From Fibrobacter succinogenes subsp. succinogenes S85 (GTDB lineage: Bacteria > Fibrobacterota > Fibrobacteria > Fibrobacterales > Fibrobacteraceae), in the NCBI RefSeq assembly GCF_000146505.1, contig NC_017448.1:3540001-3572000 (forward strand): a DNA stretch of 32,000 bases, written 5' to 3'. Every line of letters starts with the position of its first letter. The first letter of the stretch is position 1. Shown one piece after another: positions 3,165 to 28,083 of the stretch. A program made the position numbers and the translations under genes. Below the pieces are notes generated by a model. That model was given only the letters and a program-made list of their open reading frames with translations, did not search any database and was not told the origin of the DNA.

Positions 3165-3194
3165 TAGTTACTCCTGACCAAACCATTCAAAAAA

Positions 3195-3220
3195 GGACCG
3201 CAGCGATGCGGCCCTTTTTG
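3195..3220 (+). terminator. Rho-independent terminator after frdB
   Basis: Stem ggaccgca (3195-3202), loop gcga, stem tgcggccc (3207-3214) with one mismatch, followed by TTTTT 3215-3219. Confidence 0.7.
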
Positions 3221-3368
3221 TATGTAAACTGCAATCGTCCAAATCTCTCGGGAATCGGTCATTTTTTCGGGATGTCCCCAAAAGAAGTTGTAGCTCGGTC
3301 ACGCTTGCGGCGCCCTATAACCACTCTCTTTCCTATATTTCCATTAGAAATTAAAAAAGGAATCTAAG

Positions 3369-4160: not shown

Positions 4161-4178
4161 CGGTCGGCGCGCAATCTC

Positions 4179-4838: not shown

Positions 4839-4846
4839 GGCGTGTC

Positions 4847-5668: not shown

Positions 5669-5842
5669 TACATCCAAATTTGCCGTTCTTCCCCAAATTT
5701 CGACGTGTTGTAGACTTTTAAAACATTTTTGGGATTTTTTGTAAAAAGTTCTAGAAATGTTGTCTACCATTTTTGTATTTTATCCTTCAACTAACAAATT
5801 TTTAAATTTTAAATAACATTTGTGTTATTTGAAGGAGATTGA

Positions 5843-6748: not shown

Positions 6749-6754
6749 TATTGT

Positions 6755-7540
6755 ATGAAAAAGTTCATCCTAGTTGCCGTCTTCGCCATATTTTGCCTTG
6801 GCTCAAATGCGCTTGCCAGGGGAGTGTCCGAACCGATTCTCCGTATTGGCGTGCATGTAGGCATAGGTACTACTGGTTATTGGGACTACCCGTCGGAATC
6901 TCTTGTGGGTAGCGATGACTGGGGCGGTGTCGCGGCAGACTTGGGTGGCGTGTTTAAGTTCCGTATAAATGATATCCTGAACTTTATTACTGAATTGAAT
7001 TTTGGCCTGAATGTGGTTAGCCGTGATATTGCCTTTGGCAGGAATCGGCAAACTTACTATACGCAAGAAGAAACGCGTACAATCTTGAAGACGGATTTAC
7101 CGCTCCTTATTCGTGTTTGGCCGTTGGAATACGGCTTCTTTGATGCGGGTGTCCAGATCAATGCCAATTTTTGGAGTACAAGCAACAAGGAATACCATGA
7201 TGCCGATGGAAATTCTTTACAGAGCGTGAGTGGCGATTTGGAAACATGGAAAGTGAGGACAAATGTCACGTCTCTTGTTTTCGGTTTTGGCCTCGGTGGT
7301 GTCATTGGTGACCTTGGTTTCCGCTTTATTCTGGACCTCGATCGCATCCATAAAAATGACAAGATTTCTTACTACAACGATGGTAAGGAGATTTATCCTT
7401 ACGATGAATATGTCAAGATAAAGTCCGAAAAAAATATTCCAGGACCGTCAGAGAAGCCTACGGTCTTTGAAAACAAGACAAAAATTTGGACCTTGCAGTT
7501 TGTGGTCAATTACTACTTTGATTTGAAATCATCCAGGTAA
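6755..7540 (+). CDS. Outer-membrane beta-barrel protein, tandem paralog of 5843..6748
   Basis: Signal peptide MKKFILVAVFAIFCLGSNALA. Shares blocks with the upstream gene (GVHxGIG..WDYP, GxVFKxRIN, ...LQFVVNYYF). Only 6 nt separate the two genes. Confidence 0.6.
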   Translation: MKKFILVAVFAIFCLGSNALARGVSEPILRIGVHVGIGTTGYWDYPSESLVGSDDWGGVAADLGGVFKFRINDILNFITELNFGLNVVSRDIAFGRNRQTYYTQEETRTILKTDLPLLIRVWPLEYGFFDAGVQINANFWSTSNKEYHDADGNSLQSVSGDLETWKVRTNVTSLVFGFGLGGVIGDLGFRFILDLDRIHKNDKISYYNDGKEIYPYDEYVKIKSEKNIPGPSEKPTVFENKTKIWTLQFVVNYYFDLKSSR

Positions 7541-7622
7541 AAATTTTTTTCAAAAAATTTTTAGACCAAAAGCCTGCGAAAAGCGTGTTTATATAATAGA
7601 ACCTTTTTGCAGGAGAAAATAG

Positions 7623-8324
7623 ATGATTCAAAATCAAGTGGCTCTGTACACGAAACCCGACTTCAATTTGATGCCGCGAGAAAAACTGGAATTCTCCGGC
7701 GTCAGCTCTTTAAGCAACGAAGAACTGCTAGCGCTGATTTTGGGGAGCGGTAGCCATGAATGCAGCGTGTTTGAATTGGCGAGGCGTCTTTCGGAATTCT
7801 TATCAACGGAAACATCTGTCCCCACACTTGCCCGTCTCAAGAGCATTCGTGGACTTGGAAAAGTCAAGGCCGCTCAAATTCTGGCATGCTTGGAGCTTTC
7901 TGGGCGCTTTATTTTAAGTGACAAGGCAATTCCCGTGGCTGTTCCCGAAGATGTGCTTTCTCGCGTGGCGTACATGAAGTACGAATCGCAGGAACATCTT
8001 GTCGTCATTTCCTTAAATTCTGCCAATTACATCATTCGCGTACACGAACTCACGACAGGGCTTGTGAACCAGACGCCCGTGCATCCGCGCGAAGCGTTTG
8101 CGCTCGCTATTGAAGACCGCGCCGTTTCTGTGATTTTTGTCCACAATCACCCTTCTGGATCGCTGGAACCGAGTCCTGAAGACATGTCTATCACGCGAGT
8201 CCTCTGCGCATCAGGTAAAATTTTGCAAATCCCAGTTTTGGACCATATTATCATTGGTAAAAGTGGGTTTACAAGTTTGTGCCGTCTTTACCCAGAAATC
8301 TTTGAACAGGCTTTTTTCAAGTGA
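7623..8324 (+). CDS. radC: RadC-family JAB/MPN domain protein
   Basis: N-terminal ELLALILGSGS helix-hairpin-helix-like block, and the JAMM motif HNHPSGSLEPSPEDMSIT near the C-terminus. Confidence 0.85.
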   Translation: MIQNQVALYTKPDFNLMPREKLEFSGVSSLSNEELLALILGSGSHECSVFELARRLSEFLSTETSVPTLARLKSIRGLGKVKAAQILACLELSGRFILSDKAIPVAVPEDVLSRVAYMKYESQEHLVVISLNSANYIIRVHELTTGLVNQTPVHPREAFALAIEDRAVSVIFVHNHPSGSLEPSPEDMSITRVLCASGKILQIPVLDHIIIGKSGFTSLCRLYPEIFEQAFFK

Positions 8325-8492
8325 AATCTTGTAAAAAAAAGACATAAATAGTAAAAATACAAAAAGTATGTATTATTTATCCATTATTTCGTGGGTGAAA
8401 AAGTGCGGACTTTTTTTTAAAGAGTTATATTTCACTTAAACATTACTATAAGGACCACTCTATCCAAGGGGTGGTTAAAACAAGGAGACTCT

Positions 8493-10869: not shown

Positions 10870-10897
10870 ATAATCGCAACTACGTTGCCATTTTGTC

Positions 10898-10919
10898 ATC
10901 CCGGCCTCCGTGCCGGGAT
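10898..10919. repeat. Stand-alone GC-rich perfect hairpin (REP-like element candidate)
   Basis: atcccggc (10898-10905), loop ctccgt, gccgggat (10912-10919): a perfect 8-bp stem with no following T-run, 30 nt downstream of the real terminator. Confidence 0.35.
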
Positions 10920-10948
10920 CGCCTTTATTAATTGCTAAATTATCGTAT

Positions 10949-11203
10949 ATGACAAAACTTGATGAAATTCTGACCGTAAATAACTTTAGCAATCACGATC
11001 TCGTTGAAATGCTCCCCGTGAACTTGAACCACAAGATGGTGCAGAAGGCGCGCCTCGGAAAGAAGCCTGTGCCAAAGCACACGCAAGACCTGATTCTGCA
11101 GGCTTTGAACAAACTCTTGCTGCAAACCGCGGCTGAAGTGGATGGCAAGGTTGTGAAGCAGTACAAGCGCGTGGAAGTGTTCGGAAACGACGAAGTCGCT
11201 TAG
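10949..11203 (+). CDS. Small hypothetical protein (84 aa)
   Basis: ORF with ATG at 10949 (MTKLDEIL...). The upstream extension to 10910 would run through the hairpin at 10898-10919. No recognisable motif; Lys-rich. Confidence 0.4.
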
Positions 11204-11225
11204 CAACTTTTATTACATTAACAAT

Positions 11226-12038
11226 ATGCAGCAATACTTAGATCTTCTTAAAGATATTATCGATAACGGTGTGGACCGTTCCGACCGCACTGGCACCGGC
11301 ACTCGTTCTGTGTTCGGCCGCCAGACTCGCTTTGACCTTTCCAAAGGCTTCCCGTGCCTTACAACTAAGAAACTCCACTTGCGCAGTATCATTCACGAAC
11401 TGCTGTGGTTCTTGAAGGGCGATACGAATATCAAGTACTTGCACGATAACAAGGTTACGATTTGGGACGAATGGGCCGATGAAAATGGCGACTTGGGCCC
11501 GGTTTACGGTCACCAGTGGCGCTCCTGGCCGACACCCGATGGCGGACATATTGACCAGATTGCAAATTTGATCAATAGCCTCAAGAATAATCCGGATTCT
11601 CGCCGTCACTTGGTTTGCGCCTGGAACGTCGCCGAAGTCGACAAGATGGCTTTGCCGCCGTGCCATTGCCTGTTCCAGTTCTACGTGGGCGGTGTTGGTG
11701 CTAGCGGTAAGCGTAAGCTCAGCTGCCAGCTTTACCAGCGCAGTGCCGACATGTTCCTCGGCGTGCCGTTCAACATTGCGTCTTATTCGCTCTTGACGAT
11801 GATGCTTGCTCAGGTCTGCGGTTACGAAGCTGGCGAGTTTGTCCATACTTTTGGCGACTTGCATTTGTACAGCAATCACTTTGACCAGGCTCGTGAACAG
11901 CTTTCGCGTACGCCGCGTGCGCTCCCGACGATGAAGATGAATCCTGATGTCAAGGATTTGTTTAATTTCAAGTTCGAAGATTTTGAACTTGTGAATTACG
12001 ATCCGTGGCCGACCATCAAGGCTCCGATTGCTGTTTAA
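11226..12038 (+). CDS. thyA: Thymidylate synthase (ThyA type)
   Basis: MQQYLDLL...[29 protein letters not shown], active-site LPPCH, and [16 protein letters not shown]. These are canonical ThyA blocks. Confidence 0.97.
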
Positions 12039-13036
12039 TGAACTCTTCGATTGACTTCATTGGCGATATTCATGGGCATTACGATGAACTCGTAGTGCTC
12101 CTTAAAAAGCTAGGCTACGAAGAACGCGGAGGCGCGTTCCGCTATCCGGGCGATGCTCGAACGGTCGTCTTTTTAGGCGATTATATTGACCGCGGGAGTC
12201 GTGTGCGCGATACGGTAAATCTCGTGCGTGCCATGCGCGATGCGGGTTCTGCTGTGGCTCTGCTGGGCAATCACGAGTTCAATGCGCTTAGCTTTTGGCA
12301 CGAGAATGGAGCCGGCGGGCGTCCCATAAAATCAATTCGCGGCGGTTATTTGCGTGAGCATTCTTTTAACAAAGTAGCGATTCACGTGAAGACTGTTGAA
12401 AGCTATCGCGGGCGCAAGGCGGAATTCCAGGAAATGCTTGATTTCCTCAAGACGCTCCCGCTTTACTTGGAAACGGACTTGTTCCGTGCGCAGCACGCTT
12501 GTTTTGACTTGAAATGTGCCGATGTGCTTAAAGCTGAAGGTATCCGTTCTTTTATGGATGGCGATTTTGACGAGCTTATTGCGCGTGCGAACGACAAGAA
12601 TGACGAATACGATGATTCGCTGTATTGGCCGATAAGTTTGTTCTTGAAAGGCCCAGAATTGGATTTGCCGGAGGGAGTGACGTTCCGCGATGCCGAAGGT
12701 GTAAATCGTAAACGTACGCGAATCCGCTGGTGGATTAATCCGAAAAACGTCACTTTGCAGGATCTCAGTTTCCAGCCGGGCGTGGAATTGCCTCCGCGCG
12801 AAGTTCCGCTTGAAATTCAGACTCGCGATTTCTATGGCGAAAATGAACGCCCGGTTTTCTTTGGGCATTATTGGTTGACGGGAATGCCTGAACTTATTCG
12901 TGATAACGTCTGCTGCTTGGATTACAGTGTTGCAGGTTATCGCGGTGATGGGCGCCTGGTTGCTTACCGTTTTGATGGCGAACAGAAACTTGATAACCGT
13001 AAGTTCGTCTCAGTCGAAGCCGGAACAGCATTATAA
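12038..13036 (+). CDS. PPP-family metallophosphoesterase (ApaH/PrpE-like Ser/Thr phosphatase or diadenosine tetraphosphatase)
   Basis: Motifs GDIHGH, GDYIDRG and GNHE in canonical order. ATG 12038 overlaps the thyA stop by one base (TAATG), implying translational coupling. Confidence 0.8.
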   Translation: MNSSIDFIGDIHGHYDELVVLLKKLGYEERGGAFRYPGDARTVVFLGDYIDRGSRVRDTVNLVRAMRDAGSAVALLGNHEFNALSFWHENGAGGRPIKSIRGGYLREHSFNKVAIHVKTVESYRGRKAEFQEMLDFLKTLPLYLETDLFRAQHACFDLKCADVLKAEGIRSFMDGDFDELIARANDKNDEYDDSLYWPISLFLKGPELDLPEGVTFRDAEGVNRKRTRIRWWINPKNVTLQDLSFQPGVELPPREVPLEIQTRDFYGENERPVFFGHYWLTGMPELIRDNVCCLDYSVAGYRGDGRLVAYRFDGEQKLDNRKFVSVEAGTAL

Positions 13037-13111: not shown

Positions 13112-14419
13112 ATGCTACAATGGGATACGCTTCTTTCTGCAACGCGTTACGGTCACCCGGCCGATCCGGACCCGAACCGTTCTGACTTCCATCGCGATTA
13201 CGACCGCATCGTTTTTTCTACCGCATTTCGTCGCTTAGGCCGCAAGACTCAAGTTCATCCGTTCTCGGTGAATGACCACGTTCACAGCCGCCTCACGCAC
13301 AGTCTTGAAGTTTCGAGTGTGGGCCGTAGCCTCGCAATTACGGTGTATCACCTGATTAAAAAGCATTTGCCGAAGTACGTGAACGAATACCAGTTCGGTA
13401 CGATTGTGCAGTCGGCATGCCTCGCTCACGATATTGGAAACCCGCCGTTTGGCCATGCAGGTGAAGCCGCTATTCGCGAATGGTTCCGCAAAAATCGCCA
13501 TTCCGCACCGATGTCTGAACTGAGCGACAAGGAAATTGCAGACTTCGAAAACTTTGACGGTAACGCTCAAGGCCACCGCATTTTGAGCAAGCTCGAATAC
13601 CACTTCCTTGATGGCGGTATGCGTCTCACGTACGCAACAATCGGTTCGATGATTAAGTACCCGCGACTTGCGTATTACGGTTGCCCGACGAGTTTGTTCC
13701 GCACTGAGGCTGAACTCTATCGCGAAACGGCTGAAATTCTTGGCATTCCGGAAATTGAAAATGGCGTGTGGGCGCGCCATCCGCTTGTGTACTTGATGGA
13801 AGCGGCAGACGATATTTGCTATTCCATCCTTGACGTTGAAGATGCAATTGAACTTGGCATTTTGACGTTCGGCGATGTGCGCAACATGTTCAGTTTCTTG
13901 TGTGGTCCGGAAGTCGATATCGACCGCGAGTTCGAAGAAAACGGTCAGAACTTCAGAGACTTCCTCAGCAGCATTCGTGGGCGCGCCATCCAGAACTTGA
14001 TTGATGACGTGGCGGTGCTTTTTGTGAAGCATTACGACCGCATTATGGAAGGTTCGCTTGACAAGCACTTGATTGACCTTTCACGTTCCGATACGATGGA
14101 AGGTATTCGCATTGCGAAGCGCCTGGGTGTAGAACGCATTTACCCCGACCGCCGCAAGACGGAACTTGAAGTCGGTAGCTACACGACGCTTAGTACTGTG
14201 CTTGATGCGTTTATTAACGGCGTTTACGATTACCGCCAGAACGATCGCAATTCGTATCGTGCAAACCGCATTGTCCGCTTGATTGGACAGGCTAAGATTG
14301 GCCAAAGCGTTACGACCGCCGAAGCTTACCACCAGGTGCTTGACTTTGTGAGTGGCATGACGGACAATTACGCTACTTACCTCGCTCGTCAAATTGGCGG
14401 GCTTGCGATGGGCTATTAA
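13112..14419 (+). CDS. dgt: dGTPase-like HD-domain deoxynucleoside triphosphate triphosphohydrolase
   Basis: Blocks FHRDYDRIVFSTAFRRLGRKTQV, HSRLTHSLEV and LAHDIGNPPFGHAGE are the family signature. ATG 13112 (MLQWDTLLS) is preferred over the track start at 13088. Confidence 0.85.
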   Translation: MLQWDTLLSATRYGHPADPDPNRSDFHRDYDRIVFSTAFRRLGRKTQVHPFSVNDHVHSRLTHSLEVSSVGRSLAITVYHLIKKHLPKYVNEYQFGTIVQSACLAHDIGNPPFGHAGEAAIREWFRKNRHSAPMSELSDKEIADFENFDGNAQGHRILSKLEYHFLDGGMRLTYATIGSMIKYPRLAYYGCPTSLFRTEAELYRETAEILGIPEIENGVWARHPLVYLMEAADDICYSILDVEDAIELGILTFGDVRNMFSFLCGPEVDIDREFEENGQNFRDFLSSIRGRAIQNLIDDVAVLFVKHYDRIMEGSLDKHLIDLSRSDTMEGIRIAKRLGVERIYPDRRKTELEVGSYTTLSTVLDAFINGVYDYRQNDRNSYRANRIVRLIGQAKIGQSVTTAEAYHQVLDFVSGMTDNYATYLARQIGGLAMGY

Positions 14420-17094: not shown

Positions 17095-17655
17095 TTATTC
17101 TAAGTACGTCAGCCCGCTGTAATTAAATTTAACGACATCGATGCTTGTGTCGGCCTGTTCGACCAGTTTTTGTTTCCATTCGCTCATCGGAATATCGCTT
17201 GCGATGAGCTTGCTTAATCGTTGACCGAACAGAATTTCTTCACGGGTGATTGTTTCTCCGTTTGATTTTGTACAGCCGTTGATGAGAGCTTCGGTGGGGT
17301 TGCTGATGAACATGGACGAGAAAAATCCGCTGAGATTCATGCTCTTTGCAAATGATGACGCGTAGCACCAGATCCCGATAACGCGTTTTGCCTTAATGTG
17401 GCGGACGTTCTTTTCTGATATAATAAATGGATTGCCGTGAGTTTGTGGGGATAAAAGTCCGCTCGGGTAGCCATGTCCACATAATATAATAGTGTCTTTT
17501 TCGGTGAGCAACGCTTGTTCAACTTTCTTTGACCATGGACCGTTGAAACCGTTAATCTCAATGACCTTGACGTTCGGGAGATCCTTCCAGATATGCTTGA
17601 GAACCAACGTGTCCGTGTCGCCCATGTTAGAAAAAATAACGGTAGCAGAATTCAT
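17095..17655 (-). CDS. Hypothetical 186-aa protein with a clan-CD (caspase-like) His-Gly...Cys pattern
   Basis: RBS aaggag on the minus strand just upstream of ATG 17655. A hydrophobic strand is followed by GHG (TIILCGHG; H61 codon 17473-17475), and 36 residues later a second hydrophobic strand is followed by Cys (RVIGIWCYAS; C97 codon 17365-17367). Confidence 0.55.
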   Translation of the reverse strand: MNSATVIFSNMGDTDTLVLKHIWKDLPNVKVIEINGFNGPWSKKVEQALLTEKDTIILCGHGYPSGLLSPQTHGNPFIISEKNVRHIKAKRVIGIWCYASSFAKSMNLSGFFSSMFISNPTEALINGCTKSNGETITREEILFGQRLSKLIASDIPMSEWKQKLVEQADTSIDVVKFNYSGLTYLE

Positions 17656-17729
17656 AAAAATCTCCTTTTTTTCTCTGTATCGTTGTTCTGTCTGAATTTG
17701 TCAACTAACATAAGTGACAGAAAATGACC

Positions 17730-17758
17730 TTGACAAAAACCGTAATTTTTACTATATT
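17730..17758 (+). promoter_or_regulatory. Sigma-70-like promoter candidate for the 17909 operon
   Basis: TTGACA 17730-17735, exactly 17 nt of spacer, TATATT 17753-17758, inside a 253-nt AT-rich divergent intergenic region. Promoter consensus for this lineage is not known to me. Confidence 0.4.
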
Positions 17759-17908
17759 AGCCCGGCTTTTATGAGTTTGGTTTTATAATTGTTTAATGAA
17801 AATATTGTTTAGGGTTTAAGGAAAATTAATTGTTTTTCCTGTTTCCCTCTGTCGTTTTTCCTTGACATTGTTGTTTGACTTTTAATCCATTAATTAAAGA
17901 GGTAAGTT

Positions 17909-18799
17909 ATGGATATGTCTTGTGCTGTACAGACAAATGACTCTCCACGCTTTAAGCTGGAGGAGAATGAAAAAATCTACGCATTGTTTGATGCGTTCAT
18001 CAAAAAAACTCTTGTTGAAGACCGCGCCATCGATTTTTCGGCACCCGCAATACTCAATGAAGATGGCACCATAGAATTTTACGAAAGCGACTATCGATTC
18101 TCCGACTTAATCCGGGGTGTCGGCCACAATAATACAAAGGCTTGCTTTGAACAACTAATCGCTAAGCGGGTCACGAAAGAATACAAGCTTTTGGCGACAT
18201 CCGAACCGTTCGTGGAAAAATTACTACTGCTGTCCGCTCATTTCTACTGGTTGTGGAGCTTGGGTATTTCTTTTTGCGAAACTTCTTGCGGTGAATATGG
18301 CAAGGCACTTTCTATCAATGAAGGTTGGGCTGATTACATTGATGATTACTATGTAGGACAAGGTCTCTGGAGTACATCGACAACTCGACCCGCTCGCAAA
18401 AAAGAACTGATGTTGATCTATTCTATCTTTGAACAGTTCATCACATGGCCGAAAAAGCCAACGTTTAAAAATTTGTTTGAACTGAAACAGGCTCTGGTCC
18501 ATTTCGTCTTCAAGACCAAGCTTGATTCAAACGCTCCAATCCGCAACGGTCTACTCCACTTCTGCAATCCCGACCGTTACATTGACTTCTACCGTTACGA
18601 ATCAAAAGTTCAGTACGTTGAAAATAATTCCAATCTGCTGCGAGATTACAAGGTATCGGACTACGCTCAAATGCTCACTCAGGATGGTCTCTATTTTTCC
18701 ACCAGAATTGGCAAGGTTGAAGACCACTTGGTCTACAAGGCAAACCGAACTGAAGAAAAAATTTGCTACATCTATGACAAGCTTACTCAAGTAGGTTAG
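17909..18799 (+). CDS. Hypothetical protein (296 aa), first gene of the LRR-A operon
   Basis: RBS aaagagg upstream. No signal peptide or TM segment. Stop TAG 18797-18799 abuts the RBS of the next gene. No confident motif. Confidence 0.6.
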
Positions 18800-18813
18800 A
18801 AAGAGGATTTATT

Positions 18814-21218
18814 ATGATCGCCAAAAATAAAGAACAACTTATTGAACTAATCCATAAAGCCATTGAAGAAAAGGGTTATGAATGCGACCTGAATTTTATT
18901 GACGTGTCGCAAGTGTATGATATGAGCGAATTGTTTAGCCATTCCCCGTTTAACGGCGACATTATAAATGGGATGTGTCGAATGTGTGGAGTATGAGAGA
19001 AATGTTTGCTTTCTCTCGGTTTAATGGCGATATTAGTGGGTGGAACGTATCAAACGTGACGGATATGGGAAGCATGTTTTGGAGGTCTAAATTCAATGGC
19101 GATATCAGTCATTGGGATGTGTCTAATGTGACGTACATGGCGTGTATGTTTAGCTGTTCTAAGTTCAATGGTGATATCAGCCGTTGGAATGTGTCTCGTG
19201 TGACAGATATGAGAGGCATGTTTGTTCATTCTCCATTCAATGGCGATGTCAGTCATTGGAATGTATCGAATGTGAAAGATTTTGGCTGTATGTTTGACGA
19301 ATCTGCTACGGAATGGGCGATGTGTTATCCGTCCTGGTATAAGGGTAAGCGAGTAAATGGGATTGTTGCCGAGAACCGCGAAAATCTTATTGAAATTATT
19401 AAAGCCGTAATTAAAAGAAATGGCTCAGAGTGTGATTTGAATTATATTGACGTGTCGCAAGTGACGAATATGAGATATCTGTTTGTTCATTCACAATTCA
19501 ATGGCGATATTAGTGGGTGGGATGTGTCGAATGTGACAGATATGAGGGGAATGTTTAGAGATTCTCTGTTTGAAGGTGATATCAGTCAGTGGAATGTCTC
19601 GAAAGAAACGGTTAAGGATAGTATGTTTTTCAACTCTGGTATTGAAAAAAACAATCGCTATCCATCTTGGTATGGAAAAGATGAACAGGTCCATAAGGTT
19701 GTTGCTCGGGATCGTGATCATCTTATCGAGCTTATTGATGCGGCAATTGAAAGAAATGGTCTTGAATGTGACTTGAATTTTATTGATGTGTCGCAGGTGA
19801 CGGATATGAGTTGGCTGTTTGGTTTTTATTCGCTTGATGATGAAACGGATGAAGAAATTCCCGAAGAAGAAATGGATGATTCGCAAAGAAAAGCTTTAAA
19901 AAGAAGTCAATTTGATGGCGATATCAGTCAATGGGATGTGTCGCATGTGACAAACATGAAAGCGATGTTTTTTTCCTCTTCTTTTAATGGAGATATCGGT
20001 CAGTGGGACGTGTCATGCGCGAAAGACATGAAAGGGGTGTTTTTCAATTCACAATTCAATGGTGATATTAGCGGGTGGAATGTATCGAATGTGACTGATA
20101 TGACGGGGATGTTTTGGTACTCTAAATTCAACAGAGACATTAGTAAATGGAATGTGTCAAATGAGACGGTTAAGGATAATATGTTTCTAGAGTCTGCTAC
20201 GGAATGGGCGAATTGCTATCCGTCCTGGTATGGGATAGATGAACGGAACCAAAAAGTTGTTGCTACTGACTGTTATAATCTTATGGAGATTATTGATGCG
20301 GCGATTGAAAGAAAGGGCTTGCAATGTGACCTGAATTATATTGACGTGTCGCAAGTGACGGATATGCGCAAGTTGTTTGGGTTTACGCGGATTTTTAATG
20401 ATTACGGTGAAGAAATTCCCGATGAGGAGTATGCTGAATGGAATAGAAAAACACTATTGAGAAACAAATTTAATGGCGATATCAGTGGGTGGGATGTGTC
20501 GAACGTGACGGATATGACGGATATGTTTCGCGGTTCTGATTTCAATGGTGACATCAGTCAATGGGATGTGTCAAATGTAACGAACATGGAAGGGCTTTTT
20601 GTCAGCTCAAAATTTAACGGCGATATCAGTCGATGGAATGTATCGAACGTGACGGATATGAACAATATGTTTGGCAACACTGAATTCAATGGCGATATCA
20701 GCGGGTGGGATGTATCAAACGTGACTAATATGATGGGAATGTTTTGGTGTTCTAAATTCAACGGCGATATTAGTCAATGGGATGTGTCAAATGTGACAGA
20801 TATGTATGGCATGTTTGAATGTTCTAAGTTCAATGGCGATATTAGCCATTGGGATGTATCTCATGTGACGAATATGAAAAACATGTTTTATAGTTCCGAA
20901 TTCAATGGCGATATCAGTCAATGGAATGTCTCAAATGTGACGGAAATGAGCAGCATGTTTCAATGTTCTAAGTTCAATGGCGACATCTGCCATTGGAATG
21001 TATCCCATGTGACGAATATGAAAGACTTGTTTCATGGTTCCGAATTTAATGGTGATATCAGTCAATGGAATGTCTCAAATGTGACGGAAATGAGCGGCAT
21101 GTTTCAATATTCAAAATTCAAAGGCGACATCAGTCAGTGGGATATGTCAAATGTTACAGATAAAGAGTATATGTTTGATGACGATGATGATGAAATGTTT
21201 GACGAAAATGATGAGTAG
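18814..21218 (+). pseudogene. DUF285 / BspA-type LRR protein (LRR-A), four capped modules, interrupted by a 1-nt frameshift at about 18961-18966 (or a sequencing error)
   Basis: ORF 18814..18996 encodes the canonical family N-terminus ([34 protein letters not shown]...FNGDI). It then leaves the repeat frame, which continues in the frame opening at 18954 (...[14 protein letters not shown]...). The text gac att at aaa tgg gat gtg looks like GDIS-KWDV with one base missing from the Ser codon. Confidence 0.65.
18889..21176 (+). repeat. Coding 72-nt (24-aa) DUF285 LRR repeat array, about 21 units
   Basis: My count from the translation: units of the form FNGDISxWDVSNVTxMxxMFxxSx. The array is broken by three cap/header junctions near 19362, 19698 and 20255. 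Confidence 0.8.
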
Positions 21219-21246
21219 AGAGGCGGGGTAGAGTCATTTTACATTT

Positions 21247-21283
21247 CCCACCCATTTAACGATAATATATGGGTGGGTTTATT
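21247..21283 (+). terminator. Hairpin terminator candidate after LRR-A
   Basis: cccaccca (21247-21254), 15-nt loop, tgggtggg (21270-21277), then tttatt. ATG 21269 of the ORF track lies inside this hairpin. Confidence 0.5.
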
Positions 21284-21313
21284 GTATCAATTTCTTTTTT
21301 ACAAGGAATTATT

Positions 21314-22051
21314 ATGATCAAAAAATATTTGGAAAATGAATACAAAGAAGACATCAAGAATGTCTTTAACACAGAACCAAGATGCGATAGTTGGTTCTGT
21401 ATAGACTACAATAGAGATCAATGGGCTGAAATCCAAGCTAAGAACTTGGCTTTGTCCAAGGAAAATCCGGATCGTCATTTTGTTCTATCTAGTGTATTTC
21501 TATTCCATTTTATAGTTACCATAGCCATGTGGGATGAATGTTCTTATAACCAAACGTTCAATTATGATGGATTTAAGGAGTTCTATGAAGGATTGACAGG
21601 ATGGCCGCAAATGCATCTGACGTACTGGAAGGAATTTTCACGAAAATACTCCGATGAAGAATTCCTGCTGGTAGATGTCAAAAAAATTCTAGACCGTTTC
21701 TCTCTGATGCGTAACGGCATTCAAAATCGAACAAGTGAATTTATGTTGTCGTGTATTTTTGCTGCTATGCAGGGACAATTGAATGATGCATTGATTAAAT
21801 GGAATGTTTCGAAAAAGTCTAAGGTCGCGGTTTCATCTAAAGTCCAGTACCTTCTGGACAGAATCAGGAATATTTTGAAGACTGGTTATATGCCGGACGA
21901 ACCGGAACAGAAAAAATCAAATCCAGAACCAAAACAGATTGAAGATAAACCGCAAATTGAATCAAAAAGTTCTGTTGGAAAAGATTCGGATACGGAGTTA
22001 ACTGATGATGAAATCGGTTTTAATGTGTACGAAGAACCCTTAATTTTATAG
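21314..22051 (+). CDS. Hypothetical protein (245 aa) with a low-complexity acidic/Lys-Pro-rich C-terminal third
   Basis: ATG 21314 is preceded by aaggaa and shares the start context ttattATGATC with the LRR genes. No signal peptide and no recognisable domain. C-terminus ...DSDTELTDDEIGFNVYEEPLIL. Confidence 0.55.
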   Translation: MIKKYLENEYKEDIKNVFNTEPRCDSWFCIDYNRDQWAEIQAKNLALSKENPDRHFVLSSVFLFHFIVTIAMWDECSYNQTFNYDGFKEFYEGLTGWPQMHLTYWKEFSRKYSDEEFLLVDVKKILDRFSLMRNGIQNRTSEFMLSCIFAAMQGQLNDALIKWNVSKKSKVAVSSKVQYLLDRIRNILKTGYMPDEPEQKKSNPEPKQIEDKPQIESKSSVGKDSDTELTDDEIGFNVYEEPLIL

Positions 22052-22191
22052 TAATATAGAGAATAAATCTCAAAGCTCCTCTGACTTCTAGGTTGGTGGG
22101 GCTTTTTCTTTAAACAGGATTTAATTAGGTTTTGAGCTTATAATCCTATTTTATATTGTATATTTCTAAAAAATATCAAAGAGGATTTATT

Positions 22192-24681
22192 ATGATCGCC
22201 CAGAACAGAGAACATCTCATTGAACTTATTGATAAAGCTATTGAAGAAAACGGTCTTGAATGCGATTTGAATTTTATCGATGTGTCGCAAGTGACTGATA
22301 TGCATGAGTTGTTCGGATTCGTTCCGATTGATGATGATATTCCTGAAGAAGAATTTGATGAAGAGCTTCGAAAAGCAAAAAAAAGAAGTTCGTTTAATGG
22401 AAATATCAGCCATTGGGACGTATCCAATGTGACAAGTATGAGCGATATGTTTAGACAATCGCAATTTAATGGTGATATTAGTAATTGGGATGTCTCTAGT
22501 GTGACTGATATGTGGGGTATGTTTAAGAAATCTCAATTTAAAGGAAATATTAGCAGATGGAACGTATCCAATGTAAAGAGTATGGGGTATATGTTCAGTG
22601 AATCTCAATTCAATGGAAACCTAAGTTGTTGGAATGTCTCAAATGTAACGGATATGAGTTATATGTTTGATGAATCCCAATTCAATGGTGATATTAGTAG
22701 TTGGAATGTATCCAATGTGACGAATATGAGTCTTATGTTTGAACACTCCCCATTCAATGGAAACATTAGTCAATGGAATGTGTATCGTGTTAAAAATTTT
22801 AGTTATATGTTTGCTGGTTCTCGGTTTAATAAGAATATTGACCGATGGTTTTTATCGCATGCTGCAAATGTGGAGGGAATGTTTGATGAATCTGTTACGG
22901 AATGGGCGAATTGCTATCCGTCCTGGTATAGAAATGAAGGACGGATAAATAGAGTTGTGGCTAGTGACCTTGAAAATCTTATTGAAATTGTTGATGCTGC
23001 TATTGAGAGAAAAGGTTTAGAATGTGACTTGAATTATATAGATGTGTCGCATGTGACTGATATGAGAAGTTTGTTTGGATTTGAAGGAGCTTATGATCCT
23101 GAACGAGATGCGGATGTCATTGCGGAATTTAATGATTTGGATCGAAAAGCATTTAAAAGAAGCAAGTTTAATGGGAATATCTGCCAATGGAATGTATCCA
23201 ATGTGACGAATATGAACGGAATGTTTGAAAATTCTCAATTTAAAGGAAACATTGGTCAATGGAATGTATTGAAAGTGACTGATATGGGGGATATGTTTGC
23301 TGGGGCGATGTTCAATGGCGATATTAGTCAGTGGGATGTATCTAACGTAAAATGTATGGCTCATTTGTTTTATGCATCTCAATTTGATGGTGATATCAGT
23401 CGGTGGGATGTATTTGGTGTGACTGATATGCATGCCATGTTTGAAGATTCCCAATACAATGGTGATCTTAGTCGGTGGGACGTATCAAATGTGACTGATA
23501 TGCATGCTATGTTTAAAGATTCCCAATTTAATGGTGATATTAGTTGGTGGAACGTGTCAAATGTGAAAAACATGCATGCTATGTTTGAAGGATCTCAGTT
23601 TAATGGTGATATTAGTCGGTGGAATGTGTCAAATGTAACGGATATGGGAAGCATGTTTGCTAATTCTCAATTTGACGGTGATATTAGTCAATGGGATGTG
23701 TCGAGTGTGACGGACATGAGTAAGATGTTTGCGTGCGATTCTGTTGTGTATGGAGAGTTCAATCCATTCTGTGGCGACATTAGCCTATGGAACGTGTCAA
23801 AAGTGAAGAATATGAGCGGGATGTTTCGGGGATCTGAATTCAATGACGATATCAGCCTTTGGAATGTGTCAGGTGTGACTAATATGAGTGTTATGTTTTC
23901 ATATTCACAATTTAACGGTGATATCAGCCAGTGGGATGTGTCAAGAGTTACTAATATGAGCTCTATGTTTGCGCATTCCCGATTTAACAAAGATATCAGT
24001 CAATGGAATGTGTCTATTGATGCCACATTGGGTAATATGTTTAATGACTCAGCCATTGAATGGGCTAACGATTATCCTTCTTGGTATAGAATTGCTAGAC
24101 CAACGAATAGGATTGTCGCTAGAGACAAAGATCATCTTGATAAAATTGTACGTGCTGTAATAGGAAGAAAAGGACCTAAATGTGATTTGAACTATATTGA
24201 TGTTTCAAATGTGACGGATATGAGCGGTTTGTTTGTTGATTCCAATTTTAATGGTGACATTAGTCAATGGAATGTCTCGAATGTGACGGATATGAGTGGT
24301 ATGTTCTTGGGTTCCAATTTCAATGGTAACATTAGTCAGTGGGATGTTTCTAAAGTCACAAATATGACTGGAATGTTTGAAGAATCCGAATTCAATGGCG
24401 ATATCAGTTCGTGGAATGTTTCTAAAGTCACGAATATGACTGAAATGTTCAAGAAATCCCAATTCAATTGTGATATTAGCGGATGGGACGTGTCTAGCGT
24501 TGTTGAGGCTAAGTCTATGTTTGAAAACTCTCAATTTAAGCGTAATATTCGCTCATGGAAATTGAAAATGCGAAATTACAGGGGCTCGATATTAGACGAT
24601 GTGTTCAATGGAACACCAAATTATAGTGCTCTTGAAAAGGCTGCAGAATTATTAGATGACGACTTTTTTTATGAAATTTAG
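22192..24681 (+). CDS. DUF285 / BspA-type LRR protein (LRR-B), three capped modules, 829 aa
   Basis: ATG 22192 with RBS aaagagg. N-terminus [37 protein letters not shown]. About 24 FNG(D/N)ISxW(D/N)VSxVTxM repeats. Internal cap/header junctions lie near 22954 and 24112. No signal peptide. Confidence 0.85.
22267..24560 (+). repeat. Coding 72-nt DUF285 LRR repeat array, about 24 units
   Basis: Counted from the translation. Same 24-aa unit as in LRR-A. Confidence 0.8.
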
Positions 24682-24700
24682 TGCCTAACTAAAAATCAAG

Positions 24701-24741
24701 TATAAAACCCGTCGGCGTTCATGCCGGCGGGCTTTCTCGTT
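24701..24741. terminator. Bidirectional terminator between convergent LRR-B and the AAA+ gene
   Basis: cccgtcggc (24708-24716), loop gttcat, gccggcggg (24723-24731), with one G-U pair. Flanked by tataaaa on the left and ctttctcgtttt on the right, giving a U-run for either transcript. Confidence 0.75.
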
Positions 24742-27027
24742 TTAGAACCCCATCTTTCTCTTGTTATCGCTGCCTTCCTTCGCTTCAACTTCTTTTTCAA
24801 GAGCGTCAGCAATGCAGTCGGTGGTGAGCTTATGTGCGGGCAAGTAACGCAACTGGTTGTAGACGGCACTGAAATCGCCCGGGGCGAGAGTCGTCATGTG
24901 CTTGACCTGTGCGGGGCATTCGAGCTTGGGGAAGAACGAGTGCCATACTGTTTCAATCCCTTCGCGGGTGAGGTAGTCAAATTTGACCTTGAGCGCAAAG
25001 CGGCGGCGGGAGGCGTTGTCAAGTCTTGCGTTGAAATTTGTGGCGGCGATGAAAATCCCGTTGAAGTTTTCCATCTGCGTCAAGAGTTCGTTGACCTGCG
25101 TTACTTCGAAATTGCGGACGGCTCCGTTGCGGTCGTTTAAGAAGCTATCGGCTTCATCGAAGAAGAGAATGGCTTTGCGTTCTTCGGCTTCTTCGAAAGC
25201 GGCCTTGATTTTGGCTTCGGTTTCGCCGACGTACATCCCGAGCAAGTCGCTAGCGCGCTTGACGACGAGATTTCTGTTCAGTTTGCGGGCAAGGAATCGC
25301 ACGAATTCAGTTTTGCCTGTTCCCGGTGCGCCGTAGAGCAGAATGTTCAGTGACTGCGCAGCGTCTTTGCCGTTTAACTTGTCCCAAATACCGTTGAAGT
25401 TCTCGGCGATTTCAACAATGTCGTCAATGTTCTGGTCTATGTTGAGCCCGGTCAGCGTGTAAGCGGGAGCGTGCGTCGTCTTTTCGCGGGTGTTGTCGCG
25501 GGCGATGTTGAGCAAGTTCGCATGTGCATCGAGCATTTTGCGGATGACGGTGACCGCGATTCCTTTGTCCTGCTTGGCGGCGGGGATGGCGTTTTGGACC
25601 GCCTTGGTGTAGCCGCCGACTGTGACGGGGTATTCCGCGGCGATGTTCTGGATTTCTTCTTCGCTGATCATGTCGGGAACGTGGAGCACGTTCAATACGG
25701 AGTGCAACTGCAAAGCGCGTTTTTCCGCCGTAAAGTTCTTGAATTCCATCGAAAAGTCAAAACGGCGGCGGGTGCTTTCTTCGACGAACGTCATGGAATT
25801 CGAAATCCAGATGATGGGCGTGTGGATGTCTTCCATGAGCATGTTGAGCATACCTTTTTCAAGCCAGTTGAGCATCTGGTCGGCTTCATCGACGAGAATA
25901 ATGGCGTTTGTGTTTTCGCATTGCCAGGCAGCGAGTCGGAGTGTGCGCACGCGGCGGCGGAGAATCGCATCGTACATGCCGCCTTCGCCACCGAATCGGT
26001 CTTGCTCCGCTGGCGCCTTGATGGTGTACATCTTGAGTCCGAGTTCATTGGCGAGTGCTTTTGAAAGCTCAGTCTTGCCGGTACCCGCGCGACCGTAGAA
26101 CAGAATGTTGAGCGGCTTCTTGTAATCGTGATTAGCGAGCAAGTACACGAGCGTATCAGCTTCCGGGCGGTCCTTGGCGAGTGTCTCGAACGGAATCTTG
26201 GAATCTTCGGCAATGCCGATATCGCCAACTTTAGTAATCTCGTTTTGACCGTTCAGGTGGCGGACAATGTCCCCGTCCAGATCCATATCGTTGTCAAGAA
26301 TGCCGAGCTTGGAAATGAGCGCATCGCTGTTGGTCAGTTCAGAAAGTCGCTGCTTGGAAAGTCCGGTGGCGATGGGAATGAGTTCCAAGTCTTTTTCCGT
26401 GAAACGGGTCCTCATCCCGCAAGTCAAGCGCTTCTTGATGCTTTTGACGTCCATTTCATCGTATTCCTGAATCCAGAGATAGAGAATGAGTTCAATTTCG
26501 TCGTCGTTCAGGTGGAACATTTCCTGGAGCTTTTCAACTCGCTGCATGGTGGAGTCGCTTTCGTCGGTGCCTTTGTTGAGTTCCTGCCAGGCGAATTTCA
26601 TGAACAGCGGAATGACAGTGTTGAGAAAACGCTTCCATTCATTATCGGTGAAAACGTCCTTGGAAAGGTGCTTGATATTTTCGATGCTGCGGGCGACCTC
26701 GACGTGGAAATCTTTGTGCGGGTATTTCTTGAGGAATATTGCTCCATGTGCGCCGCAGTAGTTGCCTCGTGCGACGGAGAGAGGTGCGGAACCGTCAAGT
26801 TTATTTTGTCTGTCAATTTGGGCGAGCGCGTTGACGAGTTCGGTTTGTGTTTCAAAATCCATGAGGCCGACGACTGCTTCGGGGTTGAGATAGTCGGGGT
26901 TTGCTTGCAAATAACGGACCCAGTATTCCAACACCTTCAAAAGCGTGAACTTGGAGCTTGTGCAGCCTTGCGGCGTGTTGCTCTGGAGCTTGTTGGCGAT
27001 GTTCTGGAAGTATTCTTTTTTATTCAT
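24742..27027 (-). CDS. Tandem AAA+ ATPase (two classic-clade AAA modules) with an unknown N-terminal domain of about 300 aa
   Basis: D1 has Walker A GRAGTGKT, Walker B ILVDEADQ and ...STRRRFDF. D2 has Walker A GAPGTGKT, Walker B ILFFDEADSF, ATNFNARLDNASRRRFALKVKF and the SpoVK/CbxX-like stretch GMYVGETEAKIK. Confidence 0.9.
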   Translation of the reverse strand: MNKKEYFQNIANKLQSNTPQGCTSSKFTLLKVLEYWVRYLQANPDYLNPEAVVGLMDFETQTELVNALAQIDRQNKLDGSAPLSVARGNYCGAHGAIFLKKYPHKDFHVEVARSIENIKHLSKDVFTDNEWKRFLNTVIPLFMKFAWQELNKGTDESDSTMQRVEKLQEMFHLNDDEIELILYLWIQEYDEMDVKSIKKRLTCGMRTRFTEKDLELIPIATGLSKQRLSELTNSDALISKLGILDNDMDLDGDIVRHLNGQNEITKVGDIGIAEDSKIPFETLAKDRPEADTLVYLLANHDYKKPLNILFYGRAGTGKTELSKALANELGLKMYTIKAPAEQDRFGGEGGMYDAILRRRVRTLRLAAWQCENTNAIILVDEADQMLNWLEKGMLNMLMEDIHTPIIWISNSMTFVEESTRRRFDFSMEFKNFTAEKRALQLHSVLNVLHVPDMISEEEIQNIAAEYPVTVGGYTKAVQNAIPAAKQDKGIAVTVIRKMLDAHANLLNIARDNTREKTTHAPAYTLTGLNIDQNIDDIVEIAENFNGIWDKLNGKDAAQSLNILLYGAPGTGKTEFVRFLARKLNRNLVVKRASDLLGMYVGETEAKIKAAFEEAEERKAILFFDEADSFLNDRNGAVRNFEVTQVNELLTQMENFNGIFIAATNFNARLDNASRRRFALKVKFDYLTREGIETVWHSFFPKLECPAQVKHMTTLAPGDFSAVYNQLRYLPAHKLTTDCIADALEKEVEAKEGSDNKRKMGF

Positions 27028-27300
27028 GATGACCTCATATATAGGCGAGAATACCGCACCTTTTATTCAAAAGGGTACAATATCCCCAAAATTTTTTTTC
27101 TCTTGGGGGCGTTAAAAAAGAATTTTATGGAAATTTAAAATTGAAAAATGAAATTTAGTGTATGCATGATTTTTGCATCACATTCCAAATATAGTAAAAA
27201 TGACTTTTTTTGTCAAGGGCAAAAATGAGAGACTGTCATTCGGAAAACAGTTTACAATGGCGATATATAAAACGATATTAAAATAAAAGAGGTGAATTGT

Positions 27301-28083
27301 ATGTCGGATAAAGTTGTGGTGCGCGATCTTGAAGAACTGAGAAGATTGGTTTATGATACCATTCAACGCTTGGGACCGAATTGTGACTTGAACTTTATAG
27401 ATGTATCTCCAATGGTGGAAATGACGGGACTGTTTACTTGTCCGAACCATACGTTTAATGGGGATATAAGCCAGTGGGACGTGTCCAATGTGATCAATAT
27501 GGACGAAATGTTTTCGGGCTCCGATTTCAATGGCGACATTAGCCGTTGGGATGTGGCAAACGTTGATAGTATGTACGGAATGTTTAAATATTCCGCATTT
27601 AACGGAGATATATCGGAGTGGAATGTTTCAAATGTTCAATGCATGAGTAATATGTTTGAGGGGTCAGTTTTCAATGGAGACCTTTCTAAATGGGATGTGT
27701 CCCGAGTGAATCGCATGGATGACATGTTCCGTTATTCTAAGTTTAATGGGGATATCTCTAAATGGGATGTGTCGCACGTGACATCTATGGATGATATGTT
27801 TCATGGATCCGTGTTTAATGGAGATATCTCGAATTGGGATGTTGGAATGTGTAGAAGTTTTGGCGGTATGTTTTATCGTAGTGCCTTTTGTGGCGATTTG
27901 GAGCGTTGGAATCTTGTTAATCCGGAACTCATGACTTTTGATATGTTGGAATGCTCATTGTTGGATTGGAATAATTGTCTTCCGCAATGGTATAAGGTTA
28001 TTTATAGAAATCAGAATGTTGTTGAAGATTTTAATGAATTGGACTCCATTGACGATGACGAGGATAAAAACCTGCCTTTTTAG
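27301..28083 (+). CDS. DUF285 / BspA-type LRR protein (LRR-C), single capped module, 260 aa
   Basis: ATG 27301 with RBS aaagagg. Header [32 protein letters not shown], 7 repeats, closing cap LDWNNCLPQWY, acidic tail DSIDDDEDKNLPF. No signal peptide. Confidence 0.85.
   Translation: MSDKVVVRDLEELRRLVYDTIQRLGPNCDLNFIDVSPMVEMTGLFTCPNHTFNGDISQWDVSNVINMDEMFSGSDFNGDISRWDVANVDSMYGMFKYSAFNGDISEWNVSNVQCMSNMFEGSVFNGDLSKWDVSRVNRMDDMFRYSKFNGDISKWDVSHVTSMDDMFHGSVFNGDISNWDVGMCRSFGGMFYRSAFCGDLERWNLVNPELMTFDMLECSLLDWNNCLPQWYKVIYRNQNVVEDFNELDSIDDDEDKNLPF
27388..27914 (+). repeat. Coding 72-nt DUF285 LRR repeat array, 7 units
   Basis: Counted from the translation. Confidence 0.8.

Follow-up and report, generated by a model that had tools for sequence, protein, structure and literature searches.

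Do genes that stand side by side in a bacterial genome also work together? The question is raised by a block of seven genes in Fibrobacter succinogenes subsp. succinogenes S85, at positions 17095-28083 of the window, i.e., of the whole stretch of 32,000 nucleotides (nt) analysed here (contig NC_017448.1, positions 3,540,001 to 3,572,000 of the forward strand). There, three leucine-rich-repeat (LRR) genes of the DUF285 type, called here LRR-A, LRR-B and LRR-C, are interleaved with a tandem AAA+ ATPase gene and with three open reading frames (ORFs) for orphan proteins of 186, 296 and 245 amino acids (aa), an arrangement in which a preliminary description, made from the sequence alone, had seen a candidate system. 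The stretch belongs to the S85 chromosome, with exact protein matches to FSU_3085, Fisuc_2518, FSU_3088 and, for the AAA+ protein, ACX76108; the 186-, 296- and 260-aa ORFs (the last being the 245-aa ORF read from an upstream ATG), the AAA+ protein and the neighbouring genes all have exact FSU_/Fisuc_ counterparts. We argue that the block is probably a conflict-type variable island around a candidate ATPase–cysteine-peptidase pair, into which cassettes have been inserted, and not one LRR–ATPase machine.

Composition and comparative loci reveal a mosaic, in which an old pair of host composition, made up of the AAA+ gene (24742-27027, minus strand) and the 186-aa gene (17095-17655, minus strand), is combined with strain-variable cassettes of three families that have a low G+C content at third codon positions (GC3). 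Between the two genes, on the plus strand, lie the 296-aa gene that opens the cassette array (17909-18799), LRR-A (18814-21218), the 245-aa gene (21314-22051) and LRR-B (22192-24681), and on the other side of the AAA+ gene lies LRR-C (27301-28083, plus strand). The cassettes have a G+C content of 34-42%, compared with about 50% for the flanks and 52% for the AAA+ gene. GC3 ranges from 0.35 to 0.48 in the five cassette genes (296-aa, LRR-A, 245-aa, LRR-B, which has 0.349, and LRR-C) against 0.58-0.68 in host genes, being host-like (0.675) in the AAA+ gene and intermediate (0.535) in the 186-aa gene; given these low values, the AT bias of the cassette genes exceeds what the amino-acid content of the repeats would produce. 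The gene order, strands and intergenic gaps, the AT-richness of the block and the near-flank composition of the AAA+ gene stand as the preliminary description gave them, except for the start of LRR-A, which had to be corrected on account of a 1-bp deletion in this assembly.

The pair of AAA+ and 186-aa genes recurs elsewhere. Because the precomputed Pfam annotation of the comparative loci (given here by L-numbers) omitted DUF285 genes, even at a PF03382 E-value of 1e-170, all loci were rescanned by tblastn. In two of them (L007, L018) the S85 site carries no cassette genes at all: the AAA+ gene, next to the PDZ gene, is followed after a gap of 12-15 nt by the 186-aa gene, next to FSU_3084–ABC-3. 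The two genes are likewise adjacent and co-oriented in L088, with a gap of 73 nt and with cassettes beyond the pair. In Bacteroidales, a sigma factor gene, an AAA gene and a 186-aa homologue follow each other in L038, with an α/β-hydrolase-like gene added between the last two in L035, and in Spirochaetales an AAA gene (PF00004 plus AAA_lid_6), whose product matches IetA models, is followed by ClpP (E = 1.5e-67) and by a 186-aa homologue in an apparent operon (L029, 6365-9550; L030, 27-2852). The AAA+ gene followed by the 186-aa gene is a conserved core, without being an obligate one. In the ancestral state, the two would have been adjacent and co-oriented between PDZ/LptD and FSU_3084/ABC-3; in S85, they are now separated by cassettes on the opposite strand, about 7 kb in all and with a low GC3, in the order 296-aa gene, four-module DUF285 gene, 245-aa gene and three-module DUF285 gene, and a single-module DUF285 gene lies between the AAA+ gene and the PDZ gene. 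At the Spirochaetales locus L029, the 186-aa homologue is itself followed by genes for a SHOCT-domain protein and for a 633-aa protein that has no Pfam match.

The content of the slot between the core genes varies widely. It is a lone 296-like gene in L001, where further paralogues lie past the 186-aa gene, and two 296-family paralogues in L011, where a DUF285 gene lies on the other side; L012 carries in the same place (2328-7895) a triad of VWA, PP2C and protein-kinase genes, which we take to be the TerY-P architecture, and in L019 the gap is occupied by Macro and glycosyltransferase genes, with a NADAR gene lying past the 186-aa gene (549-9663, 13583-14086). ADP-ribosylglycohydrolase genes are found nearby in L001, according to Pfam, and the same N-terminal sequence occurs in L012 and L013. 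The S85 cassettes themselves come and go: LRR-B is absent from strain UWB7, where homology to the window stops at 21906, restarts at 24727 and ends at 27223, and also from a 99%-identical metagenome strain (L084), and LRR-C is absent from L001, L007, L011 and L013, in which the AAA+ gene directly adjoins the PDZ gene. Moreover, everything from the 186-aa to the AAA+ gene, LRR-B excepted, has different genes on both sides in UWB7.

Among the cassettes, a second link is close. Scanning metagenomes with the 245/260-aa family as anchor gave 15 loci, and in all of the 14 that are informative (14/14) a member of the family adjoins a co-oriented DUF285 gene at about 0.2-2 kb, over a range of 28-96% identity. 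This pair stands in L095 and L097 with neither an AAA+ nor a 186-aa gene in the locus, and in L019 a 462-aa ORF (10885-12273, minus strand) has DUF285 repeats (E = 9e-42) fused with a domain of the 260 family (33% identity, E = 6e-29). DUF285 does form a true and tight pair with the 245/260-aa family. The order is 296-aa, DUF285 and 260-aa gene in S85 and UWB7, and DUF285, 260-aa and DUF285 gene in L019. A third link concerns the 296-aa family, which heads the arrays and is in most cases transcribed away from the 186-aa gene, as it is even in L020, where an AAA+ gene is missing; the loci in which the two genes are divergent are L001, L008, L011, L013-L015 and L020. The linkage is made of three nested links, i.e., AAA+ with 186-aa gene, 245/260-aa gene with DUF285, and 296-aa gene at the head of the arrays, every one of them facultative. 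Since the companions are conserved beside DUF285 genes in other genomes, the association noticed in this window is real, and random juxtaposition is refuted. The cassette families form a Fibrobacter-specific set that is rapidly reshuffled. The N-terminus of the L019 fusion is Lys/Ala-rich and histone-H1-like.

As regards the core proteins, the larger one (761 aa) is a type II classical AAA+ ATPase with two PF00004 domains (D1 and D2), as its first reading as a tandem ATPase had it, together with a 290-aa N-domain that has no assigned family. Among the invariant columns of 12 homologues with 36-77% identity to the S85 protein are the motifs G-x-G-K (315-318) and D-E-A-D (380-383) of D1, P-G-T-G-K-T (568-573) and D-E-A-D (624-627) of D2, two pairs of arginines (421-422 and 675-676) and the pore loop of D2, M-[YF]-V-G-E-T-E; the C-terminal end R-x-M-G-(F) (24742-24756) is conserved, with R, M and G invariant. 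From this we infer a working type II unfoldase that threads its substrate, both of its rings being apparently active. The C-terminal tail, which is found also in members without a 186-aa neighbour, may be a docking motif for some partner. The nearest solved structures are those of Cdc48/p97/VAT, and D2 comes closest to IetA (PADLOC models, 4e-39, residues 529-711). Neither name applies at equivalog level: the IetA equivalog NF042959, whose cutoff is 510 bits, reaches 122.4, with D2 alone aligned, and the Cdc48 equivalog TIGR01243 scores 95.8 bits against 802.65, with no match to CDC48_N or CDC48_2. The protein thus resembles the Cdc48/p97/VAT unfoldases and the AAA+ proteases (VAT–20S, ClpXP) in its tandem classical AAA domains, its D2 pore loop and its conserved C-terminal tail, whereas it differs from the former by the lack of a Cdc48 N-domain and a TIGR01243 score far under the cutoff, and from the latter by its presumed partner, a candidate caspase-fold cysteine peptidase. 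To our knowledge, no peptidase of that fold is known as the partner of an AAA+ protease. A further point of likeness is the ClpP gene that separates the AAA gene from the 186-aa homologue in L029 and L030. The family is large, with more than 400 clusters, and its named members are from Fibrobacter.

That partner, the 186-aa protein, had been proposed as a small clan-CD protease, a proposal that its motif, the topology of its model and its fold matches now support. In clan CD, a hydrophobic beta-strand directly precedes each of the two catalytic residues, His(-Gly) and Cys, with the His coming first. Neither H61 (in CGHG) nor C97 (in IWCYAS) varies among 21 homologues that share 37-82% identity with the S85 protein; in an AlphaFold2 model of the protein (predicted local distance difference test, pLDDT, 95; predicted template-modelling score, pTM, 0.91), which is a three-layer alpha/beta sandwich, strand 3 (55-59) directly precedes H61 and strand 4 (91-95) directly precedes C97, so that alignment and model agree with the order and the strand placement of the clan. 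A Foldseek search of BFVD gave as its top match a giant-virus 'Caspase domain protein' (E = 1.9e-5; template-modelling score, TM, 0.53), with caspase and clostripain lower down, and in the search of the PDB the best TM and probability were those of gingipain R (TM 0.50, probability 0.97). These data support, without proving it, a candidate cysteine peptidase of the caspase-hemoglobinase fold. With the clan CD peptidases (caspases, metacaspases/orthocaspases, gingipain, clostripain, CHAT) it shares the placement of His-Gly and Cys and, in the model, a three-layer sandwich; unlike them, it has no match to a hidden Markov model (HMM) and a TM of about 0.5, is much smaller than most and is known here from sequence and model. 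Neither Pfam nor NCBIfam (E <= 0.1), PADLOC or PHROGs gave a match to the protein, and a profile search of the PDB with the family gave none either.

The 186-aa family counts 61 clusters in a word-indexed search and reaches Spirochaetales, Bacteroidales and other gut and rumen contigs of metagenome-assembled genomes (MAGs). It is present in 21 IMG/VR viral contigs (L041-L061), many of which measure 120-424 kb, and a single contig may hold as many as three copies; the 415-kb contig IMGVR_UViG_3300028832_000001 is one example. In a Fibrobacter MAG (L005, 7214-7879, minus strand), a 186-aa homologue of 54% identity is divergent from a PF00545 (barnase/RNase N1-type) gene, this ribonuclease gene taking the place of the AAA+ or the 296-family gene.

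In the island reading that we favour, an AAA+ hexamer and the small cysteine peptidase would cooperate as an ATPase–protease pair, with a logic like that of IetAS or of the AAA+ proteases. IetAS (Ietis) has been described as a protease toxin with an ATPase antitoxin, the anti-phage mechanism itself being unknown (PMC13069673). Like IetAS, the S85 core is a two-gene module of ATPase and protease in a variable region, with a D2 nearest to IetA; unlike it, its ATPase combines two AAA rings with an N-domain of 290 aa and scores far under the IetA cutoff of 510, and the putative partner is a caspase-fold protein of 186 aa instead of the S8 subtilase IetS, in a pair known here from its genes alone. 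No S8 or other peptidase HMM matched any of the seven block proteins. The site would be a conflict or defence hot-spot that gathers mobile cargo, and the DUF285/245-aa pairs would not be subunits of the ATPase but intracellular protein-binding cargo, perhaps with a part as decoys, inhibitors or sensors when phage and host are in conflict.

Defence islands and integration hot-spots offer the closest comparison for the site as a whole, which like them is fixed and holds strain-variable, compositionally foreign cargo. Unlike them, it lacks an integrase, a tRNA and direct repeats; hardly any of the cargo is recognised by PADLOC, and the DUF285, 260 and 296 families are not among the known defence genes. 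The absence of mobility signals, already remarked on before, was confirmed wherever it was examined: a search of the locus gave no tRNA and no Rfam family, the block edges have no flanking direct repeats of at least 14 nt (the sole shared 12-mer looks like chance), and domain scans covering the seven block proteins and ten flanking proteins of the window found no integrase or transposase domain. The recombinase, tRNA target and direct repeats of an integrative element or prophage are missing, yet the block stands between other flanks in UWB7.

Several observations weigh against the island reading. The 186-aa homologues often occur without an AAA gene, as in L005, L020-L025 and the 21 phage loci (in 21/21 viral loci, there is no AAA+ relative near the 186-aa copies), and most AAA+ family members examined have no 186-aa neighbour, standing alone or as tandem paralogues in L003 and L004; the AAA+/186-aa pair is therefore facultative too. 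Furthermore, the loci from related MAGs are not phylogenetically independent. As for the peptidase, none of the peptidase HMMs (Peptidase_C14, C25, C11, C13, CHAT) matches the 186-aa protein, the Foldseek search of the PDB gave nothing at E < 1e-3, with flavodoxin-like folds scoring close by, and the clan-CD fold assignment depends on TM values of only 0.50-0.53. PADLOC, applied to the cargo of the other loci, left the L012 triad unrecognised and returned only a weak kinase match and a candidate NADAR match, so that the defence-island label rests on domain architecture alone and this part of the reading is weak. The functions attributed to the block proteins are all inferred. Finally, both the relocation of the stretch from 186-aa to AAA+ gene in UWB7 and the recurrence of DUF285, 296 and 260 genes at the locus in most genomes of the F. 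succinogenes group would also fit a cohesive multi-gene unit.

Such a unit could be one integrated system, in which the DUF285 LRRs would sense, the AAA+ protein would remodel or activate, the 186-aa peptidase would execute and the 296- and 245-aa proteins would act as adaptors. All five families do occur together in S85, UWB7, L011, L084-L086 and L088, the stretch from 186-aa to AAA+ gene has been found between other flanks in UWB7, and the links can be chained from one end to the other: AAA+ to 186-aa gene, 186-aa to 296-aa gene through divergent promoters, 296-aa gene to DUF285 over 15 nt, and DUF285 to the 260 family through the fusion. We nevertheless consider such a system unlikely. The core occurs without cassettes in L007 and L018 and the 260–DUF285 pair without the core in L095 and L097; the AAA+ gene stands alone or in tandem (L003, L004) and phages carry DUF285 modules without companions; cassettes vary freely in number and position, LRR-B being dispensable between 99%-identical strains; and they lie on the opposite strand with a very different codon usage, in a slot that holds unrelated cargo elsewhere. 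The single LRR and AAA+ system that had been put forward is, for these reasons, not supported, and of the sensor/effector arrangement first suggested only the AAA+/186-aa pair may survive, its link to the LRR proteins being facultative.

Of the companion proteins of the cassettes, neither the 296-aa nor the 245/260-aa protein has a significant match in Pfam, NCBIfam, PADLOC or PHROGs, domain scans found no toxin-like domain in either, pairwise comparison detected no relationship between the 245-aa and the 296-aa protein, and viral scans with both of them and with the AAA+ protein returned no relatives. The 296-aa family is restricted to Fibrobacter (72 clusters, and only 36 representatives among 1.84 billion proteins), and its model (pLDDT 74) is all-alpha and matches no fold in the PDB. 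In its two most distant relatives (P0384, P0385), it forms a domain N-terminal to an AAA_5/McrB-like ATPase: the core of the family matches the N-terminal region of these two AAA_5 proteins (hmmsearch E = 7e-6 and 8e-5; hhalign 90%), with the shared motifs HLxWLWSLG … P[VI][RK]N[GA][LF]LH[FL]C[ND]. This hints that the 296-aa domain is a recognition domain used by AAA motors. The aligned conserved core and the shared motifs liken it to the N-terminal domains of McrB-like AAA_5 GTPases, unlike which the 296-aa protein stands alone, without an ATPase domain, in a comparison that goes through two distant sequences. P0384 and P0385 are the only relatives outside the core 296-aa family. An identity as HEPN RNase, which the RNGLLH motif, invariant in the family, brought to mind through its likeness to Rx4-6H, was rejected: 19 members gave no HEPN Pfam match, no fold match was obtained, and the Arg is replaced by Lys or Gln in the distant AAA_5-fused relatives.

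A terminator-like hairpin lies in the interval between LRR-A and the 245-aa gene (21247-21277, plus strand), with arms CCCACCCAT and ATGGGTGGG, a 9-bp stem, a 13-nt loop and a T-rich tail; it was read directly from the sequence, an automated scan having overlooked it because of its 13-nt loop. Its 3' arm includes the upstream ATG 21269 of the 260-aa version, and for this reason ATG 21314 is favoured as the start. The UWB7 orthologue starts at the position equivalent to ATG 21314.

The other half of the pair, the LRR proteins, had been assigned to DUF285 by their repeat unit, and LRR-A, LRR-B and LRR-C indeed exceed the cutoffs of both PF03382 (E = 2e-157, 3e-178 and 4e-50; 515, 582 and 169 bits against 25) and the PARCEL repeat TIGR02167 (243, 195 and 57 bits against 30), respectively; for the lipoprotein family NF045896 (Mbov_0838), their 362, 360 and 136 bits stay below the cutoff of 500. 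Each protein is a chain of self-contained modules, four in LRR-A, three in LRR-B and one in LRR-C, and a module comprises a helical N-cap, with the pattern [DE]xLIELIDxAIExxGxECDLN[FY]IDVSQVTDM, a series of 24-residue repeats (72-nt period) and a C-cap, (Y/L)P(S/Q)WY. LRR-C is composed of an N-cap, six repeats, a C-cap that reads NNCLPQWY and an acidic tail.

The start of LRR-A is ATG 18814, 15 nt past the 296-aa stop; the ORF called mechanically (18975-21218) begins in the middle of a repeat, at GTG 18975, the upstream part being in another frame. Alignment shows that one G is missing near 18965 (18960-18970) in this assembly, which splits the gene. Since this G is present in CP001792 (another S85 assembly), in one SRA assembly and in strain UWB7, the split is assembly-specific, and the idea of a frameshifted pseudogene was rejected; the 1-bp deletion is either a laboratory-strain variant or an assembly error. 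CP001792 annotates LRR-A as an intact gene of 801 aa, LRR-B from ATG 22192 (829 aa) and LRR-C from ATG 27301 (260 aa), and the UWB7 orthologue of LRR-A, uninterrupted and of 807 aa, is 92% identical.

With starts backed by CP001792 and UWB7, and hence not mis-called, the lack of a signal peptide that had been reported for the LRR proteins was judged from N-terminal hydrophobic runs, and it holds. None of the three has a hydrophobic N-terminus, the longest hydrophobic run being of 3 residues against 10-19 in flanking secreted proteins (FSU_3084 and the PDZ protein do have hydrophobic N-termini), and none has a lipobox or a C-terminal domain for type IX secretion (T9SS). Their N-termini open directly with the helical cap, and as this N-cap is repeated internally, it belongs to the fold and is not a degenerate signal. 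The DUF285 proteins are accordingly predicted to be cytoplasmic. The 24-residue repeat and the PF03382 and TIGR02167 scores above cutoff are shared with the PARCEL/DUF285 'BspA-like' surface lipoproteins of Mollicutes and Listeria, in contrast to which the S85 proteins have neither signal peptide nor lipobox and consist of 1, 3 or 4 capped modules with acidic tails. An unexplained class of 'untargeted' PARCEL ORFs was noted as early as 2010 (PMC2996958), and the S85 LRR proteins correspond to it. AT-rich IMG/VR phage contigs (29-37% G+C, some longer than 150 kb) encode single-module DUF285 proteins that are 39-58% identical to LRR-C, with the same caps, no signal and none of the companion genes. 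The cytoplasmic DUF285 modules would be protein binders of phage-related origin.

Acidic tails with a few aromatic or hydrophobic residues end not only LRR-C (28054-28083, DDDEDKNLPF), LRR-A (21174-21218, DDDDDEMFDENDE) and LRR-B (24652-24681), but also the 245-aa protein (22007-22051, DDEIGFNVYEEPLIL). They could be a shared docking or recognition tag, and that of LRR-C resembles the C-terminal tip (DDDIPF) of the single-stranded-DNA-binding protein SSB. Stop-free antisense frames of 131-156 aa run across the DUF285 genes on the minus strand (19491-19886, 22138-22608, 23017-23454); they encode a repeat of their own (HI[SR]HI) and are probably not genes. They fit the 'palindromic' coding, present in the title of PMC2996958, from which the PARCEL repeats take their name.

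A tight pair of a predicted intracellular binder and a small companion invites the thought of inhibitor or immunity arrays, in which a DUF285 LRR binder would neutralise the 245/260-aa protein, the 296-aa protein or a phage protein, with the LRR ribonuclease inhibitor or toxin–immunity pairs as precedent. The co-oriented 260–DUF285 pairing is maintained across 28-96% identity, paralogous arrays, fast gain and loss and low GC3 are typical of conflict loci, and the capped modules, which are also found in phages, have no export signal. However, no toxin-like domain was found in the 245- and 296-aa proteins, the strongest lead, HEPN, failed, and a toxin–antitoxin pair would not usually be fused as DUF285 and 260-family domain are in L019; the chances of this explanation seem to us as slight as those of the integrated system.

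A bolder and still less probable proposal would join the parts in another way. The AAA+ protein and the 186-aa mini-caspase would be an undescribed two-component module, an ATP-dependent cysteine protease or abortive-infection system, of Fibrobacterota, Spirochaetota and Bacteroidota, whose peptidase half would have been borrowed by huge rumen phages and whose dedicated clients would be the DUF285 'polyproteins' and their 245-aa partners. The 'polyproteins' could then act as sensors or decoys that bind phage proteins, or they could be substrates, their chains being cut at the basic linkers between C-cap and N-cap into single modules like those of the phages.

That the DUF285 genes and their companions are selfish or decaying repeat DNA, spread through recombination or out of phages into a permissive site and with little or no function for the cell, is very improbable. 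PARCELs have been reported to be horizontally mobile, and the 'untargeted' ORFs have been raised as possible pseudogenes (PMC2996958); DUF285 fragments of 144-420 nt are present in L013, L014 and L017, and presence or absence by strain and AT-rich composition would agree with such an origin. Against this stand the intactness of the large genes (801 aa for LRR-A in CP001792; 807 aa and 92% identity in UWB7), the conservation of caps and repeat cores and the maintenance of the companion families down to 28-30% identity. Lastly, the suggestion that the proteins are adhesins which are exported independently of Sec, the AAA+ protein serving as secretion chaperone, found no support and can practically be set aside, as the surface lipoproteins of Mollicutes (reflected in the names of NF045896 and TIGR02167) and a weak match to the EccA-type AAA ATPases known from secretion systems (TIGR03922) are outweighed by correct starts without signal peptide, lipobox or T9SS C-terminal domain, by the absence of secretion-system genes among the flanking proteins scanned, by AAA+ genes that occur without DUF285, by phages that encode the same module and by an NF045896 score of 362 against a cutoff of 500.

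To return to the variable island around a core pair, its individual ingredients are all of already known kinds: AAA+ ATPases, the clan-CD fold, PARCEL repeats and variable islands as such. What appears to be undescribed so far is the 186-aa family with its linkage to the AAA+ gene, the 296-aa, McrB-N-like domain, and the capped, multi-module architecture of cytoplasmic DUF285 proteins with a dedicated companion family. The 186-aa family, of putative caspase fold and unrecognised by the family databases, is linked to AAA+ genes across three phyla and common in huge phages; if the interpretation is right, an AAA+ unfoldase with a clan-CD peptidase would be a new type of ATPase–protease pair in bacterial proteolysis or immunity. 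In turn, the 'untargeted' PARCEL/DUF285 proteins gain a context, as autonomous capped modules shared with phages and provided with a dedicated companion family. S85 can be grown in culture, and there are natural strains between which LRR-B is the one cassette of difference, which makes a direct test feasible; should the cassettes be inert cargo, the finding would shrink to an ordinary variable island. A search of the literature for the FSU_/Fisuc_ locus tags and for DUF285 in Fibrobacter found nothing relevant.

Some features of the surroundings complete the picture. The flanks of the block are of housekeeping type, with genes for thymidylate synthase, an ABC-3 permease, a PDZ protein and LptD. 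The divergent region between the 186-aa and 296-aa genes (17656-17908) measures 253 nt and has 29% G+C, that between the AAA+ gene and LRR-C (27028-27300) measures 273 nt and has 30%, and both contain a promoter-like TTGACA-17-TATATT with 11/12 matches, at 17730-17758 on the plus strand and at 27216-27188 on the minus strand, each of them a match to the consensus only. Between the convergent LRR-B and AAA+ genes, a G+C-rich hairpin (24708-24731), with a stem of 10 bp that includes 8 G-C pairs and with a T-rich tail, is likely a bidirectional terminator. Further upstream in the window, a gene for a 774-aa protein of the OmpA family (8493-10817, plus strand) is overlapped along almost all of its length by a 711-aa antisense ORF (8625-10760, minus strand), where the G+C content goes up to 57%; this antisense ORF is probably a compositional artefact.

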